This document shows positions 5,168 to 63,390 of a stretch of 64,000 nt of DNA, piece by piece; position 1 is the first letter of the stretch; every line of letters starts with the position of its first letter. The translations under genes were made by a program, and so were the position numbers. This DNA comes from an uncultured Candidatus Saccharibacteria bacterium. GTDB taxonomy: Bacteria; Patescibacteriota; UBA1384; DTJR01. A model generated the notes under the pieces. That model did no database searches and had not been told where the DNA came from. It was given only the letters and a program-made list of their open reading frames with translations. The stretch covers positions 24,163-88,162 of the forward strand of contig CAYYMZ010000001.1 of NCBI GenBank assembly GCA_964473025.1. The letters are read 5' to 3'.

Positions 5168-6390
5168 TGAAAACATTACTCCTTTCCCCTTCCTTGCCAA
5201 ACAAAAAATCCTCGGGCGGTATCATGATTTGTGATCTCTTGAGCTTGGTCAAAGAAGACGAGATTTTTGCTTTCGTAGCCAGAGACCCGCATTTAAAAAA
5301 CGTTTTAATTGAAAAATATCCTGCTCTTTCTGACATAGAAACAATCAAAAGACCAATAGAGTCGCCTTATAGTTTCCCGAGATGGTTTTTTGATAAAGCT
5401 CTCTCGCGGCAAATCGAAAAAATAAAAGATTTTTATATCAAATGGCGAGTAATTAGAAGAGCAGTTAGGTATGGCAAAAGAAACGGGGTTGAATGTGTTT
5501 GGGCGGTCCTTCAGGGTAAAACAATGATTATTAGTGCCCTTAAAGTTGCAAAAGCACTAGGCGTGCCCTTGATTTCTCAAATTTGGGATGAGCCCAAGTG
5601 GATTCTATCTGACACGGGAATTGACCAAAAAACCAAAGTAAAAATACTTAAGATTTTTGGGGAGACGGTTAAAGCAAGCAAGGTCTGTGCTACTGCGTCT
5701 GAGCCAATGGCTAAGAAATATCAAGACAAATACCGCACTAAAACAGTTGTCTTTATGGGAAGCTTGGATGCAAAAATGGCCCTCTCTGCGGCAAAGCGCA
5801 TAAATTATGGCAATAACTTAAAAATTGGTTTTGCCGGGCAGTTGTACGCAACCTCCGAGTGGAAAGCATTAATCTTGGCACTTGACGAAGTTGACTGGAA
5901 AATTCGCGGTAGGCGTGTTACTATTCACCTCTTGGGCGGGTTTGGTTCATCTGAAATGCAAAATCTGCCATCAAACCGGGTTGTAAATTTGGGCTACAAA
6001 TCACAACAGCAAACAATAAAAATTTTATCAAAAATGGATATCCTTTATTGCCCATATTGGTTCGACGAGGAGCACAGAGGTATTGCCAAAACAAGTTTTC
6101 CCAGCAAGCTAACAACCTATTTTGCAGCGGGTAGGCCGGTATTTTTCCATGGGCCGGAGTATTCCTCACCAGCGAAGTTTATCAGGGAAAACAAATGTGG
6201 TGTATTATGCCACTCGCTGAGAAGCAAAGATATTGTGAAACAATTTGAAGAGCTTTTGAGTGATCGCAAAAGATATAGTCAGATTACGCGAGCAGGGAGA
6301 GTGGCCTTTGATAAATATCTGACTTATGGTAATCTCTCAAATCAGCTAACAGTTTTTCTAAATATAGCGAAAGAGAGTATTTCAAGATGA
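5164..6390 (+). CDS. glycosyltransferase, GT4/GT1-like
   Basis: 408 aa; GT-B C-terminal domain similar to neighbour; translationally coupled (4-nt overlaps both sides). Confidence 0.6.
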   Translation: MMKTLLLSPSLPNKKSSGGIMICDLLSLVKEDEIFAFVARDPHLKNVLIEKYPALSDIETIKRPIESPYSFPRWFFDKALSRQIEKIKDFYIKWRVIRRAVRYGKRNGVECVWAVLQGKTMIISALKVAKALGVPLISQIWDEPKWILSDTGIDQKTKVKILKIFGETVKASKVCATASEPMAKKYQDKYRTKTVVFMGSLDAKMALSAAKRINYGNNLKIGFAGQLYATSEWKALILALDEVDWKIRGRRVTIHLLGGFGSSEMQNLPSNRVVNLGYKSQQQTIKILSKMDILYCPYWFDEEHRGIAKTSFPSKLTTYFAAGRPVFFHGPEYSSPAKFIRENKCGVLCHSLRSKDIVKQFEELLSDRKRYSQITRAGRVAFDKYLTYGNLSNQLTVFLNIAKESISR

Positions 6391-13719: not shown

Positions 13720-14634
13720 GTGCGGTTAGTTTTACCCGTTGAACGTGACGGAAGTATCATACTTGACGTGACCAAAATCGAGCCGGGGGAGGGACATCGG
13801 CCTTTGGAGGCCAAGTATGCGGGCGCAGATCCCGCAGCTCTGCATCGGCTCACCAAACGAATCCGGGGGCCAATCTCGACCTACTGTTGGCCGGGTGAAG
13901 CAACCGCGCTTTTGGCACCGTTTGACAAGCTCCAAACCCTGCCCGAGCACCTGATCACAAAACTCAAGGCGAAGTACGGGGTGTGGGAGATTGGGGTGCT
14001 TCTAAACGAAGTGAGAAATACCGGCGCCCCCTACATCTGGAACGTCGCCGAGCCAAGCGGCGGTATGGCAGAAAGTGCCAACCTTGAGCTTGAGGCGATG
14101 CTCGAAATTGTCGAGATGGGGTTCTACAGGGAAGATGGCTGGGCGTCCTTTGATGTCTCGCGCCTTGCGAGTGCTGACCACTCGCAGGAAGTACTCGCCG
14201 AGCAGGAACGCTTGTGGCGTTCCATTAACCCCACCCTCGAGCGCAGGTGCGCGGTAGAGCTCTTGCCGATTGATCGTTTCGGCACAGATACCTTCAACGG
14301 GCGCCGTGGGATTATCTCGGTGCGCAAGGACGGCGGCCTCGGTTTTTTGAGAGCCGCTTACCTCCCTCTCAAAGAGGACGGATGGCGTCTGCGCGATCTG
14401 GAGGAGCATTTCGATCCGCAAAGCCAAACGAGCCAGATGCTCGACCGTAAGATCGTGGGGATTGTCGAGCGCATTGGCGGCAGATCGTCGCTGATGCTCG
14501 AGTTCGCCCCTAATGGCAGGCTTGATGAGTGCGGCCTGCACGTGGCCTTATCGGGCGAAGCGCTCAAGTACAACATCGGGCATCTAACCCGCTACGCGCT
14601 CGGTCCACGCGGTCTCGGCTGGATTAAGGACTAG
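13720..14634 (+). CDS. hypothetical protein (304 aa) in GC-rich islet
   Basis: 915-nt ORF in ~60% GC DNA (long ORFs unlikely by chance at this GC); GTG start, no clear SD; no recognisable motif. Confidence 0.5.
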   Translation: MRLVLPVERDGSIILDVTKIEPGEGHRPLEAKYAGADPAALHRLTKRIRGPISTYCWPGEATALLAPFDKLQTLPEHLITKLKAKYGVWEIGVLLNEVRNTGAPYIWNVAEPSGGMAESANLELEAMLEIVEMGFYREDGWASFDVSRLASADHSQEVLAEQERLWRSINPTLERRCAVELLPIDRFGTDTFNGRRGIISVRKDGGLGFLRAAYLPLKEDGWRLRDLEEHFDPQSQTSQMLDRKIVGIVERIGGRSSLMLEFAPNGRLDECGLHVALSGEALKYNIGHLTRYALGPRGLGWIKD

Positions 14635-14657
14635 CAGTACTACACAAGGAGGCAAAT

Positions 14658-15294
14658 ATGAATATCAGGTTTGTGCTGTTTGACATCGGTAACGTACTGG
14701 CGCTGGCGGATCGCCGGCGGACGGTGGAAGCGCTCATATTGCGCCACGGCGTCCCACGGGAGTTGGCCGAGGGTTACTTCGACCGCGCCGACTATGCCAC
14801 CCTAGGCCGGGGGGCAAATCAAGTGGGAAGAGTACTGTCAGCGTCTTCGTGAGCAGTGGCTTGTCGAGATCCCCGATGAAGATATTCACAGGGCACACGC
14901 TGGTCACATCTACGCTCTCGATGAGGAAGTAGCCGAATTGATTGCGAGAATTGAGGCCAAGCCTAATGCGCTAAAGGTGGCTGGTGTAACTAACACCAGT
15001 GGGGTCGAATTTGTGCGCTACTGTAATCTCAACGTAACCCTTGTTCTCGATCCGGTCTGGTGCTCATACCAACAAGGAGCGCTCAAAGGCGGTGAGGGGA
15101 TTTTCGGGCGGATTGTTGGCGCATGGATTCCGGATAACCTCGGCGTCGGGGTGGGGCCAGATCAGGTTCTACTCATCGACGATAGTCCCGAGAACTGTGT
15201 CGCGGCAGCCGCGGCAGGGCTGACAACGTTCCAGTACACTCCCTACCAACCCTGGCTTCTGGAGGCCTATCTCCGGGAGCAGGAAATTATATAG
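14658..15294 (+). pseudogene. HAD-superfamily hydrolase interrupted by a frameshift in a G6 homopolymer
   Basis: HAD motif I FVLFDIGNVL at N-terminus (ORF 14658-14852) and motif VLLIDDSPEN..AAAGL in ORF 14938-15294; deleting one G at 14809-14814 fuses the frames (..DYATLGRGQIKWEEYCQRL..). Confidence 0.7.
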
Positions 15295-27372: not shown

Positions 27373-28079
27373 TTTTTCCCCGTTGTTATTTTTCGCGTAG
27401 TTTCTCTGTAGGCAATTTTCGGCAATGAATCCTGATTTTTTTCAAGAAACGCTAGCGTTTCTTTTCCATTTTTGACAGCCAGCGATCGCAAAATCCAGGA
27501 AATCGCTTTGGTGATCAAAACATCTTTCTCGCCTTTGAGCTTCTCGATCGTTTCGTAAGCTAATTTTCGAAGTTTCGGGTCGCCCGAACCTCTTACCGAT
27601 TTGCACTGCAAAACTAAACTGGCACGTCTAATCTGGATATTCTTATCTTTGGCAAATTTATTGATTGTTTTTTCCCATTCCTTCCATCGGAAGAGAACTT
27701 CTTTTTCACTAAATAACGACTGGCAAATGCAGTCGCACTCCGCCCAGCCGTTGGTCGTCCTTAACCATTTTTTTAAATGCCCAAAATCGAGCGATCGGCG
27801 CACCTCGGGAAGCTTGGTCAGCATTTTCCCCGCAAAATTAAAATCTTCAAACGTGTCACTAGAAAAAAGATCATCCAAAACTCCTACCTGCTGCTCTGGT
27901 GAAAGTACTTTCATTTGCCCCAAATACTCACGGATAACTTTATCGCGCTGAGCGGAATAGATATTCAGCAATTTTCTTTTTGTGCCCAAATACCTCCCAA
28001 CAAAATCAAGTTCTTTCTGCGAACATTTTTTTCTCGCAGATTTCAATGATTTTCTAATTTTCTCGGCAATATTGTTCAC
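27369..28079 (-). CDS. HEAT-repeat DNA alkylation repair-like protein (AlkC/AlkD family)
   Basis: 236 aa all-helical, weak similarity pattern to DNA_alkylation family; low certainty. Confidence 0.4.
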   Translation of the reverse strand: MNNIAEKIRKSLKSARKKCSQKELDFVGRYLGTKRKLLNIYSAQRDKVIREYLGQMKVLSPEQQVGVLDDLFSSDTFEDFNFAGKMLTKLPEVRRSLDFGHLKKWLRTTNGWAECDCICQSLFSEKEVLFRWKEWEKTINKFAKDKNIQIRRASLVLQCKSVRGSGDPKLRKLAYETIEKLKGEKDVLITKAISWILRSLAVKNGKETLAFLEKNQDSLPKIAYRETTRKITTGKK

Positions 28080-28507
28080 TTGCTAGATATTTTTTTGGCA
28101 TATTTTTGAAGGAAATCCACCAATCCGGCAATAACAGCATCTCGCAGGTCAGGATCGCTTGACGCTACCCAAACAGCCAGATTGTAGAGCTTCTGCGGGG
28201 GAATATCCATCCAGTGTCCGTTTAACATCAGAAACACCAGCAATGTTGTAACGGCTATCCGTTTGTTTCCGTTTTGGAATGGATGGTTTTTGATTAACAG
28301 ATAAAATAATATTGCTGACTTATTGGCGAGTGTCGGATAGAGATCTTTTCTGCCGTAGGTCTGAAAAGGAGTGGCAAGGCAGCTTTCCAAAACGCGCGGA
28401 AACCTCGTCCTAAAAGCCGGAATCGGTTCGTCCCAGCTCATCGTTGCAACAGCGAGTTGATGGGCGATTTTTTCAATATGGTTTAATCCGATTCTTTTGG
28501 TGTGCAT
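28076..28507 (-). CDS. doc: Doc/Fic-family toxin (death-on-curing type II TA toxin)
   Basis: Fic motif HPFQNGNKRIA (HxFx[DN]GNKR); 143 aa; overlaps upstream antitoxin gene by 1 nt. Confidence 0.8.
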   Translation of the reverse strand: MHTKRIGLNHIEKIAHQLAVATMSWDEPIPAFRTRFPRVLESCLATPFQTYGRKDLYPTLANKSAILFYLLIKNHPFQNGNKRIAVTTLLVFLMLNGHWMDIPPQKLYNLAVWVASSDPDLRDAVIAGLVDFLQKYAKKISSK

Positions 28508-28761
28508 TATTCCGCTCCGAGTTTTTTAATCACATCACCGTATTGGCGGACAATTTTTTTAACCGCTTTTTCTATTTCTTTTTGGTCCTTAGCAGTCATT
28601 TCCCCCATGATTGAGTCAACATATTCCTTGGGAATCAAATATTCATGCCCAACTCTTTGATGGGGAATCAGGTTCGCCTTGACCTGGCGAAACACTTGCA
28701 TTCTACTTAGACCGATTTTTTTTGCCAGTTCTGGAATTGTGACAAATTCTTTTTGTATCAT
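28507..28761 (-). CDS. HTH (excisionase/MerR-like) antitoxin partner of Doc
   Basis: 84 aa; N-terminal HTH TIPELAKKIGLSRMQVFRQV; operon with doc; palindromes upstream. Confidence 0.65.
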   Translation of the reverse strand: MIQKEFVTIPELAKKIGLSRMQVFRQVKANLIPHQRVGHEYLIPKEYVDSIMGEMTAKDQKEIEKAVKKIVRQYGDVIKKLGAE

Positions 28762-31099: not shown

Positions 31100-31235
31100 T
31101 AAAAGATGTCGGCTGAAGTTTATCCGTCTCTGGCGGAGAGCCGAATCAAACCCTGCCTGCCCCTCGTAGCCAAAGGCGAAGTGGGGTCGGGCGTACCATT
31201 CGACTTGAACCGGCAACTTGTTTTTGTAAAAGAAA

Positions 31236-31268
31236 GGGCCTTACCACGCGTGCGGTAAGGCCCTTTTG
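31236..31268. terminator. bidirectional rho-independent terminator
   Basis: GGGCCTTACC-acgcgtgc-GGTAAGGCCC 10-bp stem followed by TTTTG on plus strand and TTTCTTTT on minus strand. Confidence 0.7.
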
Positions 31269-31289
31269 CTGTCCTGTCACGGTCTGCAC

Positions 31290-31532
31290 CTAGCAGACCG
31301 TCTCGGGGATATTGTCCGTGCCCTCCATGCACGGATCGCCGTCAGCCCTATGGTGCTTGAGCAGTCGCCAACTGAGAGCTTCATCTCCAGTGCAAGTGAG
31401 ATGATCCCCCACCGAGTCGAAGCCGCCGTGGTTTGCGGCTTGCTCGAGCTCCCGATCTTCCGCTCTTCGCAGCGGAAGGTCTGACTGATTGCAGAATCCA
31501 CAGGTTCCCTTCTTGCTTTCCGCTCCGGCCAT
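31290..31532 (-). CDS. small Cys-containing hypothetical protein (80 aa) in GC-rich islet
   Basis: strong SD AAGGAGGG 7 nt upstream of ATG; ends just before bidirectional terminator; GC-rich unlike neighbours. Confidence 0.5.
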   Translation of the reverse strand: MAGAESKKGTCGFCNQSDLPLRRAEDRELEQAANHGGFDSVGDHLTCTGDEALSWRLLKHHRADGDPCMEGTDNIPETVC

Positions 31533-31572
31533 ATTATCACCCTCCTTGGTATTTGGACAAGCGAAACATCAA

Positions 31573-31601
31573 AGCATATCAAAAAATTTTACAATAGTCA
31601 A
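31573..31601 (-). promoter_or_regulatory. sigma70-like promoter for small Cys protein gene
   Basis: minus strand TTGACT-17 nt-TATGCT. Confidence 0.4.
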
Positions 31602-31890
31602 TCGATATTCAGTTCTGCTATAATTAAATCGTACTTTTTTATTTGGTCGCAGATTCAGCAGATCCCGCGCCTATGTCTTTGACCCCTGTTGTAATGGGGA
31701 GGAGGCAAGCCAAGGCAGAGTGGGGCATACCCGGCCGGCTAGTTTCAAAACAAGGAGGGCTTTGCGAAAAGTTCAGTGTTGTTGTTTGTAAAAAAATCGT
31801 AAAAGCAAGAAGACACAATAAAAAAACAAAAAAACAAGACAAGAATCGACCCTTAATTCTTTATTCGATATTCGTTATTCTAAATTCTGC

Positions 31891-32490
31891 CTACTGTGCG
31901 TTCTCTATTTTAACCGAGGTCATTTTGTCGCCGACGGTGAGCTGTTTAGCAATATCCATGCCGGAGGTGACTTGGCCAAATAGGTTATAGGCCTTGGTCA
32001 GTTTGGTGGAATTATCAACGAGGTTAATAAAAAATTGTGAGCCGTTGGTATCGGGACCGGAGTTTGCCATCGCCACGGTGCCCTCGATGTATTCGCCTCG
32101 GACAGTTTCGTCTTTAAAACTATATCCAGGACCGCCGGTACCGTTTCCCTTCGGATCGCCGCCCTGAACAACGAATCCTTCTTCAACGCGGTGGAAAGTT
32201 AAACCGTCATAAAATCCTTTGTTTGCCAGATAAACGAAATTGCTAATTGTCAAAGGTGCCTTGTCGGCGGACAGGGCAATCTCGATTGTTCCTTTTGAGG
32301 TTTGAATAACCGCTTTTTTGTTTTGAATCTGCTCGTCGGCTAATTTACCCGGAAAACTATATTTGCCGGGCGTTGTACTCTCAATCACGTTTCCTCCTCC
32401 ATTAGTGTTTGTATTTTGCTCCGTTGTGCAACCGGTTAAACCGATTAAGGCAACAATAGCGGTTATGAATAAATAATGTGATTTTTTCAC
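31891..32490 (-). CDS. peptidyl-prolyl cis-trans isomerase, cyclophilin type, lipoprotein
   Basis: lipobox LIGLTGC after signal peptide; cyclophilin motifs FHRVEEGFVVQGGDP and GSQFFI; GTG start. Confidence 0.85.
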   Translation of the reverse strand: MKKSHYLFITAIVALIGLTGCTTEQNTNTNGGGNVIESTTPGKYSFPGKLADEQIQNKKAVIQTSKGTIEIALSADKAPLTISNFVYLANKGFYDGLTFHRVEEGFVVQGGDPKGNGTGGPGYSFKDETVRGEYIEGTVAMANSGPDTNGSQFFINLVDNSTKLTKAYNLFGQVTSGMDIAKQLTVGDKMTSVKIENAQ

Positions 32491-32695
32491 GACTCTTTAT
32501 TATAAATATTTATTTTGTCGTGCCCTTCCGAAGGAGGGCAATGTATTGACCTCGCAATTTGTAATTCTCAACAGACAATACAAATACGTGGATAAATTGA
32601 TTTAACCATAAATATGATTTTTCGCAACATCTAATTTGTAGTAGAATAGAAAGTATAAAAATAATCAAGGCCCATAACACCGAACCTTACTGTCA

Positions 32696-32727
32696 CCCCA
32701 ACACCCTTTGGTAAAAGGGTGTTGGGG
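32696..32727. repeat. perfect palindromic element CCCCAACACCCTT-tggtaa-AAGGGTGTTGGGG
   Basis: 13-bp perfect stem; same arms recur at 32766-32788 and split at 63288/63376. Confidence 0.8.
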
Positions 32728-32765
32728 ATGACAAGTAGCGGCTGGTGTCAGGGCTTCCGGTCCAT

Positions 32766-32788
32766 AACACCCTTTGTTAAAGGGTGTT
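32766..32788. repeat. second copy of AACACCCTTT/AAAGGGTGTT palindrome, 20 nt upstream of a start codon
   Basis: 10-bp stem with 3-nt loop; followed by SD GGAGG and ATG at 32810. Confidence 0.75.
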
Positions 32789-32809
32789 GGGACACGGAGC
32801 GGAGGAAAT

Positions 32810-33361
32810 ATGGAAATAGACGAGAAAACAAAAACACAAAGGAGAAATACGGTTATTTGGATCGTGGTTTTGTCGGTGGTTGTGTTGGCTCTGGCAGGAC
32901 TCTTGTATTGGCAGATACGCAATCTTAACGCATCAAAAAAACTGGCCAATGCCACCCCGACAGCAACGGCAACCGTCACCCAAACCGCGACTAAGACCGC
33001 AACTAAAACATCGACTGCAACGGTAACGAGCACCGCCGAAGATCGAACTCCCCAAGTCAGAACCGCGTCCGATGGTTTTCTTGGCGCCTATGTGGGAAGA
33101 AATTTGGCTGATGCCAAACCGTTTATGACCGATGGATTTTTCGCTTCTTGGACCCAAGAAGGTTTTGCCGGTGTTTCAAGTCCGGGGAGATTAAATTTCG
33201 AAGTTGTTGATATTTCAACCGGCGCTGGTCCCTGGCAGGTATTGGCCAAGGTCAATCTTCAGCTAAACGGTGAAGACGCCGGATATGAATCGTGGCGCCT
33301 CGATGTCGATTTGGTAGACGGTAAGTACCTCGTCAGTGCGATGAACGCTGCCTCGCTTTAA
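32810..33361 (+). CDS. hypothetical membrane-anchored protein with Thr/Ala-rich linker
   Basis: SD ggagg before ATG 32810; N-terminal TM VIWIVVLSVVVLALAGLL, linker TPTATATVTQTATKTATKTSTATVTSTA, C-terminal ~110-aa domain. Confidence 0.55.
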   Translation: MEIDEKTKTQRRNTVIWIVVLSVVVLALAGLLYWQIRNLNASKKLANATPTATATVTQTATKTATKTSTATVTSTAEDRTPQVRTASDGFLGAYVGRNLADAKPFMTDGFFASWTQEGFAGVSSPGRLNFEVVDISTGAGPWQVLAKVNLQLNGEDAGYESWRLDVDLVDGKYLVSAMNAASL

Positions 33362-44647: not shown

Positions 44648-47233
44648 TTATGAACTGATTTCCGGCCATTTAGCCGAAATCAGATTTTCGCTATCTTTAA
44701 ATTCTTTTGGAATTTTCTGCCATATGGTTTCGGTCACATAGGGAACGAAGGGGTGGAGCATTTTGAGAGAATCAATCAGAATCAAAACAAGCTTCGCCCT
44801 GGCCGCAGTGCAATCTTCTGCCAGGTCGCTTTGCAGCCGGGGTTTAGCTTCTTCAATCATTATATCAGCAAACTCGTGCCAAATAAAGTCGTACAATAAT
44901 TCTCCAGCGCGCGAGAAGTGTAACTGGTCTAAATGCTTGGTTGTTTCTATAATTACTTCATTGAATCTGACCAAATCTTTTTCGTCTTGTTTTGACCATT
45001 TGGCATTTGAGCTTAGAGCTTCATTTGTTATTTGGGTTTTGTCATTTGGGTTTTCCAGGTTCATCAAAACGAACCTTGAGATATTCCAGATCTTGTTTGA
45101 AAAATTGCGATAGCCCTTGATTTTTGACTCTCCGACGGCAATATCGTTGCCGGCGGTTGTGCCGACGATTAGCGACATTCGAACGGCATCGGTGCCATAT
45201 TTTTGGGCAACATCGAGCGGGTCCAAAACGTTGCCGAGCGATTTGGACATTTTGCGGTTCTGTTCATCGCGGACCAGGCCATGCAAATAAACCGTTTCAA
45301 ACGGCGCCTTGCCGGTTAATTCCAGTCCCATCATAATCATCCGCGCAACCCAGAAAAACAGGATATCATAGCCCGTTTCCATGACGGTTGTTGGGTAAAA
45401 ATATTTATAATCTTCGGTTTCCTTGGGCCAGCCCAAAGTCGAGAACGGCCATAATCCGGACGAAAACCAAGTGTCTAACACGTCCTCCTCCTGCGTCCAG
45501 TTCTCGATGTCTTTTGGTGGCTCGGCACCGACGTAAATGTCATCCTTGGAAATTTTCAATTTTAAATTTGAAATTTTTAATGAATTTTCAATGTCAGAAT
45601 TTTGGAACTTGTCACGCACAGTGAAATCATAGGCATAGATATAAGCATCTGTATCGGGATTAACTTCTTTTTCCGGATTATGAAATTTGAAGGCCTCGAT
45701 CAGTTGCCCGACATTGTCATAAACTGCTCCGTGAGCTTTGTCCTGAAGGGGCAGATCTTTTACTTTTGTCTTTGTTGATTCGGTTATGATTCCAAAGCCA
45801 AAAATTTCACTGGTGGCGCTATTCTCAAAATAAACCTTATCTCCAACTTTAAGTTCGTGATTGCGGATGCGATACGTTTTAGTTTTACCAGCTAAAATTT
45901 GCGGAACTACTCTTTCCGCAATCCCCATCACCTTCAATTTTAAATTTGAAATTTTAAATTTTAAATTCGCATCCTGTTTACGGTAGTAAACAGGCATGCG
46001 ATGTCCCCACCAAAGTTGTCTCGAAATACACCAGTCACGGATATTATCCATCCAGTGAAAATAAACTTTTTCAAATCTTTTGGGCGTAATTTTGATTTTG
46101 CCTGATTTTACGGCCTTTTTAGCTTTTTCAGCGAGTGGTTTCATCTTCACAAACCACTGTTTCGAGGGGATCGGCTCAATTTGTCCGTTGCACCTGTAGC
46201 ATAAGGCGATGTTGTGTTCGTAGTTTTCCTCGATATGGTCGATCAAGCCCATCTTCTGCATATCGTCGACGATTGTCTCGCGCGCATCACGGGTTTTCAT
46301 GCCAGCGTATTTGCCTGTATTTGCCATCATGCGGCCGTTCTCGTCGATAACTTGCTTCATTGCAACGTTGTGCCGTTGGGCAATTTCAAAGTCAACTAAA
46401 GAATGTGCGGGTGTCACTTTGATAGCACCGGTGCCAAATTCCGGATCAACGGCATTGTCTTCAACAACGATAACTTCGAATTCTCCCAAAACGCCTGGAA
46501 TCATATATTTTTTGCCGACCATATCTTTGTAGCGCTTATCTCCCGGATGAACGGCAACGGCGGTATCACCGAGTTTGGTCTCAGGTCGGGAGGTTGCTAA
46601 GACAAACGGGCCGTATTTTATCCAATACAATTTCCCTATCTCTTTTTTGTATTCCACTTCATCGTCGGCGATGGCGGTGTGACAGCGCGGGCACCAGTTG
46701 ACAGTACGAAGTCCCCGATAGATTAATTTTTTTTCATAAAATCGGACGAATGCTTCATTGACGGCATCGGACATGCCTTCATCTAATGTAAATCTCTCGC
46801 GGCTCCAGTCGCAACTTGCCCCCATGGCGCGAAGCTGATGGGTAATCTCCCCGCCAAATTCGTTTTTCCATTCCCAAATGCGCTTGACGAATTCCTCACG
46901 GCCGAGATCTTTTTTAGTTTTGCCTTCTTTGCGGATCTGCTTTTCCACTACTGCTTGAGTGGCGATGCCAGCGTGATCGGTGCCGGGGAGCCAGAGAGTC
47001 GGTTCGCCCTTCATTCTGTGATAACGGGCCAAAATATCTTCCAAAGTAATAAACATGGCGTGGCCAATGTGCAATTTACCCGTTACGTTTGGCGGCGGCA
47101 TCATGATGGTGAAGGGCTTTGCCTTAGGATCTATTGTTGGTGTAAAGGCACCCGATTTTTTCCACAGAGAATAAATATCTTGCTCGGATTCCTTCGGGTT
47201 GTAGGTTTTGTCTAGATCCATGGTTAAATCCAA
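44648..47233 (-). CDS. valS: valine--tRNA ligase with an inserted ASCH-like domain
   Basis: HIGH motif PPPNVTGKLHIGHA, WCISRQLWWGHRMP, DVLDTWFSSGLWPFSTLGWP, KMSKS; 861 aa. Confidence 0.9.
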   Translation of the reverse strand: MDLTMDLDKTYNPKESEQDIYSLWKKSGAFTPTIDPKAKPFTIMMPPPNVTGKLHIGHAMFITLEDILARYHRMKGEPTLWLPGTDHAGIATQAVVEKQIRKEGKTKKDLGREEFVKRIWEWKNEFGGEITHQLRAMGASCDWSRERFTLDEGMSDAVNEAFVRFYEKKLIYRGLRTVNWCPRCHTAIADDEVEYKKEIGKLYWIKYGPFVLATSRPETKLGDTAVAVHPGDKRYKDMVGKKYMIPGVLGEFEVIVVEDNAVDPEFGTGAIKVTPAHSLVDFEIAQRHNVAMKQVIDENGRMMANTGKYAGMKTRDARETIVDDMQKMGLIDHIEENYEHNIALCYRCNGQIEPIPSKQWFVKMKPLAEKAKKAVKSGKIKITPKRFEKVYFHWMDNIRDWCISRQLWWGHRMPVYYRKQDANLKFKISNLKLKVMGIAERVVPQILAGKTKTYRIRNHELKVGDKVYFENSATSEIFGFGIITESTKTKVKDLPLQDKAHGAVYDNVGQLIEAFKFHNPEKEVNPDTDAYIYAYDFTVRDKFQNSDIENSLKISNLKLKISKDDIYVGAEPPKDIENWTQEEDVLDTWFSSGLWPFSTLGWPKETEDYKYFYPTTVMETGYDILFFWVARMIMMGLELTGKAPFETVYLHGLVRDEQNRKMSKSLGNVLDPLDVAQKYGTDAVRMSLIVGTTAGNDIAVGESKIKGYRNFSNKIWNISRFVLMNLENPNDKTQITNEALSSNAKWSKQDEKDLVRFNEVIIETTKHLDQLHFSRAGELLYDFIWHEFADIMIEEAKPRLQSDLAEDCTAARAKLVLILIDSLKMLHPFVPYVTETIWQKIPKEFKDSENLISAKWPEISS
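45556..45579. repeat. 24-nt direct repeat copy A flanking valS insertion (encodes KISNLKLK)
   Basis: caattttaaatttgaaatttttaa; second copy 378 nt (in frame) away at 45934. Confidence 0.8.
45934..45957. repeat. 24-nt direct repeat copy B flanking valS insertion
   Basis: caattttaaatttgaaattttaaa, 23/24 identical to copy A. Confidence 0.8.
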
Positions 47234-47337
47234 AATCTAAATGACAAATGACAAATAAAGTCCAAATGACTTAATATCAAATATTTTGAACTTTGAACTT
47301 TGAGCTTCATTTGGCATTTTGGCTTTGACATTTGAGC
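47234..47337. repeat. trpS-valS intergenic spacer made of degenerate TCATTTG-type repeat units in inverted arrangement
   Basis: left half aaatgacaaatgacaaataaagtccaaatgac, right half catttggcattttggctttgacatttgagc; related words at 45001-45060 and 56361-56400. Confidence 0.6.
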
Positions 47338-48375
47338 TTAACCTAAGCCAATCCTGTCTTTTACCTGGCTTAGGGTTTCCATTGCGATAGGTTCTATTTT
47401 TTTGGCCCCTTCGGCTAAAATCTGGCGCAATTTCTCTGGTTCGGCCATCAAGGATTTATATTTTTCCTGAATTGGGGCCAAGAATTTGACTAGTTCCTCG
47501 GCGAGGGCGTCTTTAAACTCGCCATACTGCTTGCCTTCAAATTCTTTTTCTAGCTCAGCGATGGTTTTGCCCGAGATTTCGGAATAAATAGTCAAAAGGT
47601 TGGTCAGTGCTGGTTTGTCCGCGCCTGATTTAATTTCCGACCCGGAATCAGTGACCGCCTTTTTGATTTTATTGCGGATTGTCTCGGCATCATCAGTTAG
47701 AGCGATGTAATTCAAGGCAGATTCGGCCGATTTAGACATCTTTGCTCTTGGATCGTCTAGGCCCATAATACGGGCACCCGATTTTTTGATGATTGGGTTT
47801 GGCACGACAAAAAGATCACCCCGCCCGCATCCGCTGGCGCCAGCTTTTGACGGGCAAGCATATTTATTATTTAATCGCTCGGCGATATTTCTGGTTATTT
47901 CGAGGTGCTGTTTTTGGTCATCGCCAATCGGCACGTTGGTGGTTTGATAGAGCAGGATATCTGCGGCCATAAGGACCGGATAATCGAAAAGACCAGCGGA
48001 AACATTGGGTTTGTTTTCGGCTTTTTCCTTAAATTGTGTCATTCTTTGTAATTCGCCTAAGGTTGTAAAACAATTCAAAATCACCGCTAATTCCGAGTGT
48101 TCCGGGCGGTCGGATTGGACGAAGATAGCTGATTTAGCAGGGTCGATGCCGCAGGCGACATACATAGCGGCAACCGAGAGAATGTTCTTTTTCAGCTCTT
48201 CAGGATCTTGGGGAACGGTGATGGCGTGAAGATCAACGACACAGAAAATACACTCACCATCATTTTGCATTTCAACAAACTGCTTGATGGCGCCGATGTA
48301 ATTTCCAATATGTAACACTCCCGACGGTTGAATGCCGGAAAAAACCCGACTGCCGGTAGGTACGTCTCTTTTCAT
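47338..48375 (-). CDS. trpS: tryptophan--tRNA ligase
   Basis: GIQPSGVLHIGNYIGA (HIGH region) and KMSKS; 345 aa. Confidence 0.85.
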   Translation of the reverse strand: MKRDVPTGSRVFSGIQPSGVLHIGNYIGAIKQFVEMQNDGECIFCVVDLHAITVPQDPEELKKNILSVAAMYVACGIDPAKSAIFVQSDRPEHSELAVILNCFTTLGELQRMTQFKEKAENKPNVSAGLFDYPVLMAADILLYQTTNVPIGDDQKQHLEITRNIAERLNNKYACPSKAGASGCGRGDLFVVPNPIIKKSGARIMGLDDPRAKMSKSAESALNYIALTDDAETIRNKIKKAVTDSGSEIKSGADKPALTNLLTIYSEISGKTIAELEKEFEGKQYGEFKDALAEELVKFLAPIQEKYKSLMAEPEKLRQILAEGAKKIEPIAMETLSQVKDRIGLG

Positions 48376-48581: not shown

Positions 48582-49427
48582 CTATGAGATGCGGTCGAGG
48601 AAGTGGGGATCGTGGTCAAGGTGGTGCCTGATGGCGGCCGCGTCTGACTTGGAATGTGACGACACCGGAAGTGTCGGCCGCGCGAGCAGGTAGAGGACCC
48701 AGTAGGTGGCCGCGACGACGATGAGCTCGGCGGCAAGCCTGCCAATCATCATGGTGTCAGAACCAACGACCATGACTGACAGGGCTCCAAAAATCGGTGC
48801 CGCGGCTACTACTACTAACCCAAGGCCATATCGCGAGATCTTGTATGGCCTGTGTGCGATTGCGGCGCCTGTCATACCCCAGAACAGACAGCCGAACAGA
48901 GCAAGTGCAGGCCAGAGCAGGTAAACCAACGCGAAGATCTCCCCATTCAGATTCGCAAGATGGGGGAAGATTCTTTGTGCAAGGTAGTGAACCGCGAAGG
49001 AGCTGACAAACAGCGTCACCCATCCCACCGCAGTCAGGACCTTGATCAGCTTGAAACTGACCCGCTCGAGGTCGCCCTCGACGATGCGGATTGGGTCTGC
49101 CGTAGTGTGTAGGACCCAGGCACCAATCGCCGCGGCGCAGAACAGCCACCCGCTGATGGCATCCCAATAGACGCCTATGCAAACAGCCGCTATTGCCAGT
49201 ACTGCCAGCGTACTGATGCAAATCCCGTTGCCCGCCAGTTCGTGCTTCCCTGACTTGATCTCGAGTCCATTGAGGATGTAGGTAACGACGCGAAGGGGGA
49301 TCAGGCCAACCAGAATTCCGGTGGCCATGGCCCAAAGCGGCGGATGAGGCAGGCGAAACGCGGCGATTGAGACGTAGGCGATGGCCGCGTAAATCATCGC
49401 GTAAATCAGAAAACGCCTGAAACGCAT
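48582..49427 (-). CDS. hypothetical polytopic membrane protein (GC-rich islet)
   Basis: 281 aa, ~8 hydrophobic helices; ~58% GC. Confidence 0.5.
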   Translation of the reverse strand: MRFRRFLIYAMIYAAIAYVSIAAFRLPHPPLWAMATGILVGLIPLRVVTYILNGLEIKSGKHELAGNGICISTLAVLAIAAVCIGVYWDAISGWLFCAAAIGAWVLHTTADPIRIVEGDLERVSFKLIKVLTAVGWVTLFVSSFAVHYLAQRIFPHLANLNGEIFALVYLLWPALALFGCLFWGMTGAAIAHRPYKISRYGLGLVVVAAAPIFGALSVMVVGSDTMMIGRLAAELIVVAATYWVLYLLARPTLPVSSHSKSDAAAIRHHLDHDPHFLDRIS

Positions 49428-49445
49428 TGGTATTCCTCCTTTCGG

Positions 49446-49901
49446 TTACGGTCCTTGCCGATCAAGGACTTCGACGTCTTCAGGGCTGTAGACATCTTGC
49501 TCGGGAGAAACCGCAGGTTCTTCGGTGGTGGGTTTTGCCGCTTCGTCCCAGACGAGGCAACCGAGGATGGTTGCGACGATGGAGATGGATGGAATCAATG
49601 TCCAAGCAAGCCATGTTCTTCCCCCAGCAAGGCCGGCGACAAGCGTCTCAACGCCCAAGACCGCCACAATTGTTGCCACGGCAGCGACCCGGGCAGCATA
49701 CTCGTCGAATGTGCTAGAAGGATTGCTGGTCATCCAGAACCAGAGCCAAACGCAACCAGCCCCAATCAGCACCCCGACGGCGATTTTGCCTTCGATGGCA
49801 CCCGCTGCTCCACCGGCAATCCAGCAGAGGAGTCCTACTAAGTATGCGGCTAGTAGGCTTAGTATTGCTCCCTTTACGAACGGTTGAATCTTGTACCACA
49901 T
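49446..49901 (-). CDS. hypothetical membrane protein (GC-rich islet)
   Basis: 151 aa, 4 TM, acidic C-terminus. Confidence 0.45.
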   Translation of the reverse strand: MWYKIQPFVKGAILSLLAAYLVGLLCWIAGGAAGAIEGKIAVGVLIGAGCVWLWFWMTSNPSSTFDEYAARVAAVATIVAVLGVETLVAGLAGGRTWLAWTLIPSISIVATILGCLVWDEAAKPTTEEPAVSPEQDVYSPEDVEVLDRQGP

Positions 49902-51143: not shown

Positions 51144-51683
51144 TTACATCATCGCGTCGTTCGGATCGCCTGCGAGCTGGGAAAGGTCGGCCACTAGCCC
51201 TTCTCTCCGCGGGTTCTTCGGCTCGAATAGCCCGACCGCATCGGAGCCGGCGACCAGTTCGCCGACTTTAGCAACATCGCCGTTGAGGGGGAACCCCCAC
51301 GGCGGTGGGAGAAAGTCCCCACCCCCGCAGATTTTGTTGCCCTTCTCGTCGTAGAGGAAGGTCTCTGCCGGGTGTGATGGTGTCGAGATGCGCCGGGCAA
51401 AGGAGGCGATTTCCTTGAGCTGCTCCACGGATCTCATCCGATCCACTTGCAGTAAGATTGCCATGGTGGCGATGAGGCCGGTTGCGACGAAGCACGCTCC
51501 TTGGACGACCCAGTAGAGATCGGCTAGCCCCGCGAAGAACAGTGTGAAGATTCCGACTGGCAAGAGAATCCAAAACAGCCGGCTTGCCAACCTTCCCATG
51601 CGAGCGTAATGGTTCCACCACGCCCGATAGTGGGTCTTACTGTAGTGCACGCCCCGATCTACTTCCTGCATTTCAGCAGCCAT
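51144..51683 (-). CDS. hypothetical membrane protein (179 aa, GC-rich)
   Basis: two TM helices then soluble domain. Confidence 0.45.
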   Translation of the reverse strand: MAAEMQEVDRGVHYSKTHYRAWWNHYARMGRLASRLFWILLPVGIFTLFFAGLADLYWVVQGACFVATGLIATMAILLQVDRMRSVEQLKEIASFARRISTPSHPAETFLYDEKGNKICGGGDFLPPPWGFPLNGDVAKVGELVAGSDAVGLFEPKNPRREGLVADLSQLAGDPNDAMM

Positions 51684-53926: not shown

Positions 53927-53939
53927 CTTGAGTTTAACT

Positions 53940-54750
53940 TCTAGTTTCTAAAATGGTCTGGACACCGGACGTGACGGGGATGTCGCGTCCGGTGTCCTTG
54001 GGGAGGAGGCCGTTCCTGCAGTCTGCAGTCAGGTTTGGCCTGGAACCGATGAACCCGAGCCAACAGGATTCATCGTCGCTGCCTCTTGGGAAGGCAGCAA
54101 AAATGGGCGAGCAGCAAGTTCCCCCCGGAAGCAAGCTGCTCGCACCGAGTCGGTTTTGGGGCAGCCAGGAGGGGTCGGGGCCCCTAACCGACATCTCAGA
54201 TGATGGCAGCCGGTGGCAAAACCGGATGATCAGATGATGGGATGATCGGAGATGGTTTGCCACCGGAGCGATACGGAGTTAGGAGGAAGATGGCCGGACC
54301 GGACAGGTAGGGATTTGGAAGCTCGGAGCCAAGAACTATCCTTTTACCCTTTTCGCCGCGGTGCGGCACCCTTGTCCGGTCCGGTGCGGTTGCCAGGGTT
54401 TCCCCCAGCGCCCTCGAGGAGGTTCAGGATTAGAAAGAAGTGCGACCGGATAAACCCCTGGTCTGGGTAGTCAATTTGTGAAACCCAGGGCGGTGTCCGC
54501 TCCCGTCAACCTCCAAGCTGCCATAGTCGTGAGGTGCCTAGAGATTGAGCGAACGCCGTTAACACAGGCCCTATCCGGAGGACCTCCGGTCCCCATAAAA
54601 CCGGAGATTTTGGGGCAGCCGGAGCTCTGGCCTTGATTCGCCTTGGCCCCGGAAATTTCAGTCGTTTCAGTGATCGTTCGCAAAGATGCGGATTAAGCGT
54701 AATTTATCATTTTCAACCCGATTTGTCAAGACAAAACAGGTCGGATTGGC
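53940..54750. other. GC-rich ORF-poor highly structured region (candidate ncRNA or decayed island DNA)
   Basis: no convincing ORF on either strand over ~800 nt; perfect 12-bp hairpin GGACACCGGACG/CGTCCGGTGTCC (53960-53996), 9-bp GCGAGCAGC/GCTGCTCGC (54106-54145), CCGGAGG/CCTCCGG. Confidence 0.3.
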
Positions 54751-54798
54751 AAAAAAAGAGCGCCCGGCCCCAGTTCTTGTAAACTGGGGCTGGGCGCT
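54751..54798 (-). terminator. rho-independent terminator (minus strand)
   Basis: 17-bp stem AGCGCCCGGCCCCAGTT/AACTGGGGCTGGGCGCT (one G-U) with T7 on minus strand. Confidence 0.7.
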
Positions 54799-54819
54799 GG
54801 GTATGACCGGTTGTAGCGG

Positions 54820-55113
54820 TCAGTGGCCGCTGGAGGTGGCCAGAAGCACGGAGCAGTTGGCGATGCAGTGACCGTTGATGATAACGGCACTGCAGCTGCA
54901 GCGACCTTCGCCGGCATTGTAGAGGCTGTCGTGGAGCGCAGTATCACCGCTGCGATAACGCTCACCGACGGTGGCCATCGAGACCAACTCGACATTGTGG
55001 CCATCGTCCTGCAGGCAGATGCCGAGGGCCGGTACGGTGGCGCCCTCCTCGTTGTAGCTATAGGCAGTCTGGTTGACGATGGCTGCTGTCGTTGTCGAAA
55101 GTCCGTTTTGCAC
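54820..55113 (-). CDS. small Cys/Ser-rich protein (97 aa)
   Basis: GTG start with SD AGGAGAG 8 nt upstream; terminator immediately downstream; C-terminal GRCSCSAVIINGHCIANCSVLLATSSGH. Confidence 0.55.
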   Translation of the reverse strand: MQNGLSTTTAAIVNQTAYSYNEEGATVPALGICLQDDGHNVELVSMATVGERYRSGDTALHDSLYNAGEGRCSCSAVIINGHCIANCSVLLATSSGH

Positions 55114-55137
55114 GAATAAATCTCTCCTGGTGTTAGA

Positions 55138-55608
55138 TTAACTGTCACAACCGCCGAGGCACTCGCCAGCGATGATCGGCAGACCGCACGTGGAGCAGAA
55201 CTTGACACCGAAACGCCTGAAGGCGCGGCGCATCACGTCGGTTCCATCGCGGATCAGCTCTCTCGCCCGTTCAGGCGAGATCAGCTCCACTTGCCCTTCC
55301 TCCAGTATCCGATCGTGCGTGCACGGCACTTCACTATCGTGCTTAGTGCAGACCATTCCGAAGACCGAGCAGAAGACGAGCTCCGGATCGGGCGGTGGTG
55401 GCTCTTCGGTCTTGACGTAGAGTTCCTCAACCTCGGCGGGCAGGGGACCGAACACGACGCTACAGTTCGGACATTGCTTCGTGTCTGGTGTGAGTGTGAA
55501 CAGGCAATTCTGGCAGATCCAGCTCCCATCGTCGAGATGACGCGGTGGTTGGATCTCAACGGGCGGTTTCACCTTAAGGGCGGTTGGTTTTCTCAGACGC
55601 CAAAGCAT
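55138..55608 (-). CDS. double zinc-ribbon hypothetical protein
   Basis: SD GGAGGG upstream of ATG 55608; CQNC..CPNC and CSTC..C..C motifs. Confidence 0.6.
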   Translation of the reverse strand: MLWRLRKPTALKVKPPVEIQPPRHLDDGSWICQNCLFTLTPDTKQCPNCSVVFGPLPAEVEELYVKTEEPPPPDPELVFCSVFGMVCTKHDSEVPCTHDRILEEGQVELISPERARELIRDGTDVMRRAFRRFGVKFCSTCGLPIIAGECLGGCDS

Positions 55609-55666
55609 GGCGATCCCTCCAAACAAATGTAGTGAACGTCTGAACTAGGATAATTCAGATCATACG

Positions 55667-56024: not shown

Positions 56025-56387
56025 TCATTTTTTTAGAATTGAAGAGAAGATGAGAAGCAATTCCTGCGATTCTCTCCATAACTTTCGGCATTCTTCTTTC
56101 TGCTTAGGATTTGCATCAGCCATGATTCTTAGCCAATATCTTGTTTCTTTTGCCTCCTTCTTACAGATTGATATTTTATGCTTAAAATCTTTCTTAGAAT
56201 TGCAAGCATCCGCTTCACAGTAGTTTGCTCCTATACTTGAAGAAGCTCTAACGAGCTGCGTGACAAGAGGTTTGTTGATCGAGTTAGCTGGTGTCTTCTT
56301 CAAAAGCCTAATAACATCGAGAGTAAAAGCAGTCGTTCTTTCTTCTAAATCATATTTTGGTTTATGATTTTGAGCTTTATTTGTCAT
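56025..56387 (-). CDS. four-helix-bundle protein (23S rRNA intervening-sequence protein family)
   Basis: LVTQLVRASSSIGANYCEA..KISICKKEAKETRYWL matches family consensus; start at internal Met MTNKAQ. Confidence 0.65.
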   Translation of the reverse strand: MTNKAQNHKPKYDLEERTTAFTLDVIRLLKKTPANSINKPLVTQLVRASSSIGANYCEADACNSKKDFKHKISICKKEAKETRYWLRIMADANPKQKEECRKLWRESQELLLIFSSILKK

Positions 56388-57321
56388 TTGGGCTTTCGGC
56401 TTTATCGTTTGCGGTTCTATTATGGAACCGCTTATGTATCTCGTGCAAATGCTTGTCGGTAACATGGGTATAAACTTGGGTGGTGGTGATCGAAGAGTGG
56501 CCTAATAAACTCTGCACAGAGCGTAAATCCGCTCCGGCGCGCAAAATATCAGTGGCAAATGAATGGCGCAAAACGTGCGGCGTAACTTGTTTGACGATAC
56601 CGGCGCGCCTGGCCGCTTCGGCTACAATGCGCTCGACCTGCCTTGAGGTTAACCGCCCGCCGGATTCAGAGAGTTCATTCGAACCCAAATCCTCGCCGTT
56701 GGGCTTTGAATCTTTAATAAATAACGCCTTGTCTTTGTCGTGGCGCGCTTTGAGATATTTTTCGACCCACTCCTTGGCTTCGTCAGAGAGAAAAACGACA
56801 CGGCGTTTGCCGCCTTTGCCGTCAACCGAAAATTCCTCGTGTCCCAGATTAACCTGATCGCGGTTTAGGCCGGTTAATTCCGAAACGCGTACGCCGGTGG
56901 AAAATAAAATTTCTAAAATCGCGCGGTTTCTAAGTTCCAAAATATTTTTTTCACCATATACATTGCGGATTCGCTCTAACTCTTGCGGTTCCAAAAAAGC
57001 AATTGCGCGCTCGGGAGTATCGGAGAGTTCAATTTTCTCGGGCGCAAGCGATTCAACATCTGTTTTTGATAAATATTTCAAAAAGCTCCGAATCGCAATC
57101 ATATAATAGTTCATCGTTTTGTTTGCAAGGCCTCGCCGGTGCAAGACGAGCCGCCACTTTTTGATGAGTTCAAGGTCTATTTTTTTCACCGAAACTATAC
57201 CCTGACTTTCGGCAAATTCGGCAAATTTACTAAGATATGAATCGTAGTTGCGGATTGTCAGCTGGGAGTGCCCGCGCTCGAGTTCAATATATTCTAAAAA
57301 TTCTCTAATTTGTTTTTCCAC
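56377..57321 (-). CDS. xerC: tyrosine recombinase XerC/XerD
   Basis: C-terminal catalytic HVLRHSFATD..LLGHSSITTTQVYTHV with Tyr; 314 aa. Confidence 0.85.
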   Translation of the reverse strand: MEKQIREFLEYIELERGHSQLTIRNYDSYLSKFAEFAESQGIVSVKKIDLELIKKWRLVLHRRGLANKTMNYYMIAIRSFLKYLSKTDVESLAPEKIELSDTPERAIAFLEPQELERIRNVYGEKNILELRNRAILEILFSTGVRVSELTGLNRDQVNLGHEEFSVDGKGGKRRVVFLSDEAKEWVEKYLKARHDKDKALFIKDSKPNGEDLGSNELSESGGRLTSRQVERIVAEAARRAGIVKQVTPHVLRHSFATDILRAGADLRSVQSLLGHSSITTTQVYTHVTDKHLHEIHKRFHNRTANDKAESPNDK

Positions 57322-62685: not shown

Positions 62686-63284
62686 TGCCAACAATTGAAA
62701 TTTTATACATAACCTTAATCGTCGCGATCGTGGTCATAACCGTCACGGTTGTTTGGCTGTCAAACGACCTGCGCGGATTAATCAGGTCATTGCGCCACTC
62801 CGCCGAAGATACCGGAAAAGTAACACATGAAATAAGAGAGAAGGTGTTGATGGTTTCTGAGGCACTGGATCGTGCCGGTGCGGCCGCATCGTCGATTATC
62901 GGTATGATCGAAAACGCAATCGAAGAGATTAAAGGAAAAAGAGACGCCATCGTTTCGAGCATCGGCCTATTATCCGGTGCCGGCAGGGCGATTAAAGAAC
63001 GTCGCGCGGCCAAGGTTGAAGAAGATCCGGACGAAGATGAGGATGAGGAAGAGGAAGAAGTTGAAATGCCGGTAAAGAAAGAAACAAAATTGGCCAAAGA
63101 ATCGAAAAAAGATGATTCAAAGCCATCGGTTGACTCTGTTGCCAAGCCAAAGCAGGCTGAGCCAAAAAAAGAATTAAAAAAAGAAGATCAGCCCAAGGCC
63201 GACCAGCCGCAGGCTGGAAAATCTGAAACCCCAAAAAAAGAAGAGGAAGAACCCGAAGGTAAAGAAGAAGAGACCGACCTGTAG
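62685..63284 (+). CDS. hypothetical membrane-anchored protein (DUF948-like) with acidic/lysine-rich tail
   Basis: ATGA overlap; N-terminal TM ILYITLIVAIVVITVTVVWL; Asp/Glu run then KKE repeats. Confidence 0.5.
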   Translation: MPTIEILYITLIVAIVVITVTVVWLSNDLRGLIRSLRHSAEDTGKVTHEIREKVLMVSEALDRAGAAASSIIGMIENAIEEIKGKRDAIVSSIGLLSGAGRAIKERRAAKVEEDPDEDEDEEEEEVEMPVKKETKLAKESKKDDSKPSVDSVAKPKQAEPKKELKKEDQPKADQPQAGKSETPKKEEEEPEGKEEETDL

Positions 63285-63287
63285 TCC

Positions 63288-63390
63288 CAACACCCTTTGC
63301 GGTGCCGAGCTATTTAAGTTTTTTAAATTAGTGTTAGTTTTAAACTGTTATGAACTTGCGAAAATCCTCAGCTAAAAGGGTGTTAGGGGT
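63288..63390. repeat. split copy of CCCAACACCCTTT/AAAGGGTGTTAGGGG inverted repeat with ~75-nt interior
   Basis: arms at 63288-63300 and 63376-63390; right arm lies inside start of next CDS. Confidence 0.6.

Follow-up and report, generated by a model that had tools for sequence, protein, structure and literature searches.

The BOX repeats of pneumococcus, ERIC and the Correia/NEMIS elements of Neisseria are mosaic intergenic repeats that are transcribed, and the Rickettsia palindromic elements (RPE) insert in frame into genes. In E. coli, REPs located less than about 15 nt from a stop codon have been reported to modulate how the gene preceding them is translated. The genomes of CPR bacteria (Patescibacteria) are small and are commonly described as repeat-poor. 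REP/REPIN elements of Enterobacteria and Pseudomonas are mobilised by RAYT transposases (PMC3116915, PMC3337134, PMC3686654), and PATEs are non-autonomous derivatives of IS200/IS605 (PMC3119063). Full-text literature searches turned up no description of a REP or MITE family for CPR, and small palindromic non-autonomous repeats seem not to have been described in this phylum before.

The stretch of DNA analysed here (64 kb, referred to as the window), whose proteins have their closest named homologues in Berkelbacteria, carries copies of a palindrome made up of AACACCCTTT and its complement AAAGGGTGTT. These palindromes probably represent a small, lineage-specific, non-autonomous family of hairpin-forming repeats, similar to REP/REPIN elements or PATEs, in a Patescibacteria (CPR) genome. 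Their recurrence, which the original prediction had proposed, is real: the two 10-mers occur exactly six times in the window (starting at 32700, 32714, 32766, 32779, 63289 and 63375), compared to 0.25 on average, and two at most, in dinucleotide shuffles. The six 10-mers make three arm pairs, two of which are compact hairpins (32696–32727 and 32766–32788) and one of which is split (63286–63298 and 63375–63388). Beyond these six, copies with at most one mismatch are not found above chance in the window, and nhmmer profiles of hairpin A, hairpin B (both described below) and the solo palindrome, run against 151 sequences, yield no additional copies in the window or its relatives.

Core palindrome 1a (32696–32727, unstranded) has the sequence CCCCAACACCCTTT-GGTA-AAAGGGTGTTGGGG, which forms a perfect 14-bp stem, and its 3′ end is 82 nt away from the ATG at 32810. 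Core palindrome 1b (32766–32788) has the sequence AACACCCTTT-GTT-AAAGGGTGTT with a 10-bp stem and ends 21 nt from the same ATG. The stem length and the distance of about 20 nt predicted for 1b are thus correct, but 1a is both longer and farther from the start codon than the 13 bp and 70 nt initially assigned to it. The palindrome cores are 23–32 nt long and GC-rich, and all of them lie in spacers save for one coding arm (63375–63388). In the compact copies, the AACACCC and GGGTGTT blocks are 8, 9, 10, 10 and 11 nt apart; in the split copy, the distance is 82 nt. The 5′ flanks of the palindromes are CTGTCAC, GGTCCAT, CTATAAC, CCGTCAT, CCGCT, TTTGT and CTGTAGT. A GTAG-type head is found in the split copy alone, where it derives from a stop codon, so the family has no conserved head.

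The two compact hairpins are located in a divergent spacer (locus 1) between a gene for a cyclophilin-type lipoprotein (31891–32490, minus strand) and a gene for a 183-residue membrane-anchored protein (32810–33361). The upstream limit of the insert in this spacer is a native promoter block, which lies outside the repeat and contains a −10-like hexamer TAGAAT of the 183-residue protein gene (32642–32647, plus strand). The block, TTGATTTAA..TTTGTAGTA(A/G)AAT, is conserved in the relatives L130 and L134, and a third relative, L135, has GTAGAAT; this conservation and the match to the consensus suggest that TAGAAT is a promoter element. The composite insert (about 145 nt, 32656–32800, plus strand) consists of an A-rich stretch, hairpin A, hairpin B and a GAGC tail, and stops exactly at the native SD sequence GGAGG (32801–32805). 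In the RNA fold, hairpin A (32669–32755, plus strand) is a long imperfect hairpin of 87 nt, the tip of which is palindrome 1a, and its outer arms, GGCCCATAACACC and GGTGTCAGGGCT, are similar to the arms of hairpin B (32756–32798, plus strand), the core of which is palindrome 1b. Jointly, hairpins A and B have a folding energy of −81.5 kcal/mol (z = −8.5), similar to the values obtained for two composites outside the window (L129b and L127, see below), and leave the SD unpaired in the MFE fold. G-U pairs do not assign the RNA strand, as both strands have about the same folding energy (−81.5 and −82.6 kcal/mol).

The cyclophilin side of the same spacer contains another lineage-specific insert of about 105 nt (32491–32596), which is missing from L130 and L134. 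It holds a hairpin GCCCTTC-CGAA-GGAGGGC (32522–32539), the loop of which reads UUCG on the cyclophilin gene's strand, and has no sequence kinship with the palindrome family. The ORF-free region 31100–31890 was considered as a related ncRNA and rejected: it contains an 80-residue ORF with a good SD as well as classical terminators, and is unrelated.

The split copy (locus 2) connects the gene of a 199-residue membrane protein to that of a C39-like peptidase. Its left arm (CCCAACACCCTTT, 63286–63298, plus strand) begins 1 nt past the TAG stop codon (63282–63284) of the 199-residue protein gene. The AT-rich interior (76 nt, 63299–63374, plus strand) carries the SD-less ATG (63350) and codons 1–8 of the peptidase, and the right arm (AAAGGGTGTT-A-GGG, 63375–63388, plus strand) constitutes codons 9–13 (K R V L G), after which comes a run of seven T (T7). 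The stem is a 13-bp pair with a bulged A at 63385 in the right arm. The arm coordinates given by the original prediction were accurate to within a few bases (the gap being 76 and not 75 nt), and the start codon is indeed enclosed in the loop, but the stop codon, which the pair had also been thought to span, is adjacent to it on the outside. The T7 run is conserved coding sequence (F F I) that is also present in relatives without the arms.

In the relatives L143 and L144, the two genes at locus 2 are 7 nt apart (TAG GAAGTAA ATG) and there is no insert. Both arms are present in the window and in the sister species L141 and L142, in which the gene gap is 65–68 nt. The old insert corresponds to 63285–63389; the ancestral 7-nt junction with its SD has been lost and about 40 native nucleotides have been replaced. 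The N-terminus of the peptidase is now MNLRKSSAKRVLG and is repeat-derived, whereas the ancestral tail was MK(N/K)(K/R)ILKAG(I/V)L. An alternative in-frame start codon, GTG, is found at 63389, with AAGGG of the right arm immediately 5′ of it. The locus 2 flanks are 65–76% identical to those of L141 overall, while the arms are 100% identical: the left arm matches at 14 of 14 positions (neighbouring non-coding DNA, 65%) and the right arm at 16 of 16 (flanking coding DNA, 71%). The chance of the left arm escaping all 19 non-coding differences is P ~0.005.

Contigs assembled from the same samples carry five additional copies of the palindrome, one on L127, two on L129 and two on L136. L136 shares sequence with the right end of the window and continues for another 5.8 kb beyond it. 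L127 and L129 presumably belong to the same organism as the window, since the samples they come from also yielded contigs that match the window exactly, and since they show a similar divergence from sister species B. The L127 copy is a composite (1845–1966) with the same layout as that of locus 1 (A-rich stretch, hairpin A, hairpin B and GAGC tail), and its positions 1916–1966 are 100% identical to 32754–32804 of the window over 51 nt (hairpin B and GGAGCGGAG); 51-nt blocks of such complete identity adjoin wholly unrelated hairpins. On L129, copy L129a (1485–1515) is a bare palindrome of about 31 nt, which is located directly past a stop codon at the 3′ end of a gene, and copy L129b (612–668, composite 525–700, minus strand) has a locus 1-like layout and, over about 85 nt, can be aligned on the opposite strand to the window's hairpin A. 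These two versions of hairpin A have many differences in sequence; three of the 31 pairs carry compensatory changes, and none is broken except the terminal pair at an alignment end gap. The two L136 copies (5515–5545 and 6661–6690) are variants with the sequence TCCCAACATCCTTGAATAAGGGTGTTGGGA. Each is followed by one base and then by a promoter-like sequence TTGACA-17-TA(C/T)ATT, such that the palindrome is 1 nt 5′ of the −35 box, and both belong to a 67-nt repeat that is 95% identical, promoter-like sequence included.

The element exists in three forms: bare (about 31 nt), composite (about 145–200 nt) and with a 76-nt interior. Its arms of 13–14 nt recur in several intergenic places that are unlinked. 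The unbiased part of the sequence, which consists of the window and its L136 extension (about 70 kb), holds five palindromes at four sites, and a metagenome scan found only three distinct loci with the exact pattern in the source samples. The presence of more copies on contigs from the same samples, together with the empty orthologous sites of relatives described below, bears out the idea of a dispersed, mostly extragenic palindromic repeat family. That these elements are placed at gene starts is true in part. Three composites end at an SD-like GGAG (in L127, at a putative gene start), but two copies are located 0–1 nt past a stop codon and two more are 1 nt 5′ of a −35 box. The proposed association with genes of membrane or secreted proteins does not extend to the other copies, which adjoin a DnaJ-like gene and genes of soluble proteins of unknown function. 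A duplicated promoter and gene as the source of the repeats was also rejected, as blastp finds no paralogy among the downstream genes.

Two unlinked spacers bearing palindrome copies share an exact 29-nt repeat, GCAAAAGGGACTTCGTCCTCTACTTGCAG (L127 2011–2039 and L136 5461–5489). Both spacers have a mosaic look with several repeat modules, and that of L136 (4776–5677) is 900 nt long and hairpin-rich.

The orthologous loci of relatives, retrieved via homologues of the 183-residue, C39-like and DnaJ-like proteins, provide filled and empty versions of four sites. Locus 1 is empty in L130, L131, L134 and L135; in L130, L134 and L135 the distance from the −10 hexamer to the ATG is about 25–35 nt, and the window has about 145 nt extra. 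The filled L129a site reads CTCTATAA-CCCCAACACCCTTTAAATAAAGGGTGTTGGGA-GTAAAGCG and its empty counterpart in L146 reads CTCTATAA-CAAG-GTAAAGCG; this site is also empty in L147, L148 and L150. In relatives, the empty form of L129b is TATAAT-AGAAATTGCATAA-GGAGGG, and in the filled form TATAAT and GGAGGG are separated by about 200 nt that end with GAGC directly before GGAGGG. A target-site duplication is present at none of the four filled/empty sites (locus 1, locus 2, L129a and L129b). The comparison is not perfectly clean, as the inserts took the place of 4–12 native nucleotides at L129a and L129b and of about 40 at locus 2. In all four comparisons, which is a sample of four sites only, the insert is directly 3′ of T(A/T)(A/G), the targets being ..ATAA, ..ATAA, ..ATTA and ..GTAG or TTAA. 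The inserts tested either begin 0–1 nt past a stop codon or directly precede an SD, and all of them are probably in transcribed spacers.

Because the orthologous sites are empty in relatives, at least four independent insertions must have taken place, and at different times. The inserts at locus 1, L129a and L129b postdate the split from the sister species, which lacks them, and the insert at locus 2 predates it, so the family has been active repeatedly. The filled and empty versions of L129a further indicate that the bare palindrome of about 31 nt is an insertion unit in itself.

Relatives carry hairpin inserts of their own in the same spacers (L147 121–257; L131 3665–3812 and 2608–2814), which are unrelated to those of the window. 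The insert in the dnaJ leader of L147 has the sequence CCCGCCTGCAATGCC...GGCGGGCAGG. Lineage-specific insertion of hairpins into leaders seems to be general in the clade. A separate stretch, GGAGGGATTATTCAACTAGCGTC...GATTTGTTTTTGGGG, is found 5′ of the called start of a 137/160-residue membrane protein gene (L129 435–545, minus strand; L146 3640–3728; L148 6040–6128) and is nearly invariant across species in which the protein is 83–91% identical. It is either a conserved leader or the product of a mis-called start codon, possibly a non-ATG codon directly past the SD.

The common architecture of three loci (A-rich stretch, hairpin A closed by GYCCC/GGGRC, UUCC, hairpin B and GAGC followed by GGAG) is also what could be expected of a cis-regulatory RNA leader family, in which the two-hairpin module would be a functional 5′-UTR element of a regulon, bound by a ligand or a protein or serving as a stabiliser, with the palindrome as the stem that is recognised. 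The three compensatory changes that keep the pairing, the free SD and the constraint on the locus 2 arms are all in line with such a role. Nevertheless, we find it unlikely: the leaders of the orthologous genes are devoid of the module in all relatives examined, and the bare palindrome is also found past stop codons and 5′ of −35 boxes. Blocks of 51 identical nucleotides next to unrelated hairpins are a sign of repeat-type mosaicism, unlike the pattern of a diverging RNA family. Furthermore, the downstream genes have no functional relation, and an Rfam search at both gathering and permissive thresholds gave noise only (the best hit has 16.9 bits compared to a gathering score of 80). A role as transcription terminators or insulators, which could also operate on the opposite strand, where the A-rich tract 5′ of hairpin A becomes a T-tract, is improbable. 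Such a tract precedes hairpin A in all three composites, a terminator-like sequence is called on the minus strand (32689–32666, then ATTATTTTTA), the right arm of locus 2 is followed by the T7 run, and L129a lies at the 3′ end of a gene. However, the sense strand has no T-tract after 1a, 1b or L129a, whereas real terminators of the same genome (43741–43772 and 31233–31266) have classical T-tails. The inserts at locus 1 and L129b are placed between a promoter and its own gene, which a sense terminator would silence, and at locus 2 the loop is 76 nt long and the T7 run is the coding sequence shared with arm-less relatives. A scan of genome contigs with the pattern AACACCCTTT-N(2-32)-AAAGGGTGTT returned at least 120 unrelated loci from many phyla; among the matches listed, nearly all are ordinary terminators with an A-tract, a stem and a T-tract, and none has the CCC/GGG extension of the arms. 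Judging by the matches listed, the repeat in its exact form is not widespread. There were no matches to the compact or split pattern in viral sequences, and none to the composite in a blastn search of plasmids and phages.

The original prediction offered a binding site for a regulator as the alternative to a repeat family. A perfect inverted repeat, present at locus 1 in two copies 66 bp apart downstream of a promoter and on L136 in two copies 1 nt 5′ of TTGACA-17-TA(C/T)ATT promoters, could be the operator of a dimeric transcription factor that recognises the palindrome in duplex DNA and controls the adjacent promoters. The spacing of the half-sites ranges from 8 to 11 nt among the compact copies and reaches 82 nt at locus 2, which does not fit a DNA-binding protein that acts as a dimer. 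Perfectly symmetric arms of 13–14 bp are atypical of operators, the orthologous genes and promoters of relatives lack the hairpins, and the copies do not keep to one place with respect to promoters (about +13 or more, about −50, or past stop codons), all of which makes an operator very improbable. The arms, which end in ..YYYAAC and GTTRRR.., also bring to mind integron attC sites, with their variable interiors and location at gene junctions: CCCAAC and GTTGGG resemble the inverse-core and core motifs, and locus 2 begins right past a stop codon and has a 76-nt interior. An attC identity is extremely improbable. The sole tyrosine recombinase in the window is XerC/D-like (257 bits with TIGR02224 and 124 bits with the integron-integrase model, the cutoff of which is 265), a cassette array is absent from the window, the stems are perfect and have neither extrahelical bases nor an unpaired spacer, and other copies are located in 5′ leaders.

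Returning to the reading of the palindromes as a mobile repeat family, their mobility is deduced from insertion polymorphism only, as no transposase is seen in the ORFs examined: there is no transposase, RAYT, Y1_Tnp or IS element among the approximately 60 ORFs of the window and four ORFs of L136 (about 70 kb, an estimated 5–10% of a CPR-sized genome). The hairpins, the absence of target duplication and the short A/T-rich target amount to the behaviour of elements moved by HUH/Y1 enzymes. The family could thus have spread via a single-strand, hairpin-recognising HUH/Y1 transposase (RAYT-like or IS200/IS605-like), the gene of which would lie beyond the DNA covered here. After insertion, the elements would act solely as very stable stem-loops in the 5′ leader or intercistronic region of an mRNA and might affect its stability or translation; most plausibly, their effect is neutral or mildly stabilising.

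The old copy at locus 2 may have been domesticated. Its stem encloses the SD-less ATG (63350) and begins 1 nt past the upstream stop codon, so a ribosome that terminates on the upstream gene would melt the stem, and translation of the two genes would become coupled. The element would also provide the peptidase with its start codon and first ~13 residues. The compensatory pairs in hairpin A and the conservation of the arms at locus 2 argue, as far as sequence comparison goes, that the paired arms matter. Hairpin-templated repair, which can produce compensatory changes without selection on the RNA, or concerted evolution among copies could also account for this pattern. A more elaborate version of this scheme is tentative and, taken as a whole, possible but doubtful. 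According to it, the composite would be a hairpin-ended mobile cassette that inserts, with no duplication of the target, at T(A/T)A before GGAG (located between a promoter and its SD), or after a stop codon, and rewrites leaders and gene junctions of a streamlined CPR genome; a single-strand transposase of the HUH type would recognise the hairpin of the 13-nt palindrome, and one ancient copy would have been domesticated as a translational-coupling stem and have donated the start codon and N-terminus of the C39-like peptidase.

Repeated insertion exactly at translation signals shows that the intergenic spacers of CPR genomes are still under remodelling. Through these inserts, a 5′ leader of about 30 nt has grown to about 170 nt, and a coupled 7-nt junction has become a structured one of 65 nt. 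Pairs of close populations with and without an insert are natural material for studying the relationship between 5′ hairpins and expression in organisms that cannot be cultured. In annotation, such hairpins should not be taken for operators or terminators, and the start of the C39-like peptidase at 63350 lies inside repeat-derived sequence.

Several other features of this genome were noted. Islands with a G+C content of 55–65%, compared to about 40–45% in the genome, are found in the window (13720–15294, 48582–49901, 51144–51683 and 53934–55626) and in L136 (5678–7413). Their ORFs lack Pfam matches, show no detectable paralogy among themselves, and may be of foreign origin or evolve fast. Both L136 copies of the palindrome with its promoter-like sequence precede genes of such an island. 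The window encodes a four-helix-bundle ‘23S rRNA intervening sequence protein’ (56025–56465), the gene of which overlaps the 3′ end of the XerC/D-like recombinase gene (56377–57321); there is no rRNA gene in the window. A Fic/DOC-domain gene (28076–28507) is located after an 84-residue ORF (28507–28761), beside a tRNA-Ser gene. The counterparts of the 84-residue protein in L122 and L134 have only a faint match to HTH_17, and the pair may be a toxin–antitoxin-like module. A weak direct repeat with TTTG(A/G)(G/A)C-like units is present in three copies with 65–78% identity (44999–45053, 47285–47339 and 56362–56416), two of which are found at or in genes of tRNA synthetases. Low complexity of the sequence may account for this repeat.

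Compared to the known families, the element shares some properties with each. The split copy at locus 2 fits the form of a MITE with terminal inverted repeats (13-nt arms with 76 nt between them), but the compact copies are just arm, loop and arm, and the ends of the composites differ. Membership in MITEs of the type defined by terminal inverted repeats and target-site duplication was rejected, as there is no such duplication and 4–40 native nucleotides are replaced instead. Similar to BOX, ERIC and Correia elements, the repeat is modular, with conserved linkers and variable hairpins, is located near gene starts, is probably co-transcribed and would form a very stable RNA. Like them, it can carry or abut promoters, as the 67-nt repeat of L136 includes TTGACA-17-TACATT. 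Unlike them, it has far fewer copies, shows no sequence similarity to any of the three, and has neither the TA duplication nor the 26-bp terminal inverted repeats of Correia elements. With RPE, the kind that comes nearest to the translated copy, it has in common that it is a palindromic repeat in a reduced genome and is partly translated (63350–63388, the first ~13 residues of the peptidase), but here there is a single translated case, in which an N-terminal tail was replaced and no internal peptide was added, and most copies are non-coding.

The similarity to PATEs lies in the composite, which carries hairpins close to both ends but lacks terminal inverted repeats itself, in the absence of target-site duplication and in the position of the inserts right behind a short A/T-rich motif (TAA, TTA or TAG, in four out of four cases). 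It differs from PATEs in that the hairpins of different copies are interchangeable and do not form fixed ends, and no TnpA(Y1) or TnpB gene is found in the sequence examined. In contrast to classical REPs, which number hundreds per genome, five copies per approximately 70 kb are seen here. The element, which is REP-like but not an established member of REP/RAYT in the strict sense, also departs from REP/REPIN in having no conserved GTAG-type head, no RAYT gene in the sequence examined, hairpin A units that are not themselves palindromic, one translated arm and a CPR host. Similar to REP/REPIN, it is a short GC-rich palindrome without coding capacity that is dispersed in extragenic, probably transcribed spacers, its long form (hairpin A, 87 nt) is REPIN-sized and exists beside short single palindromes, its old copies persist vertically, and some of its copies adjoin stop codons.
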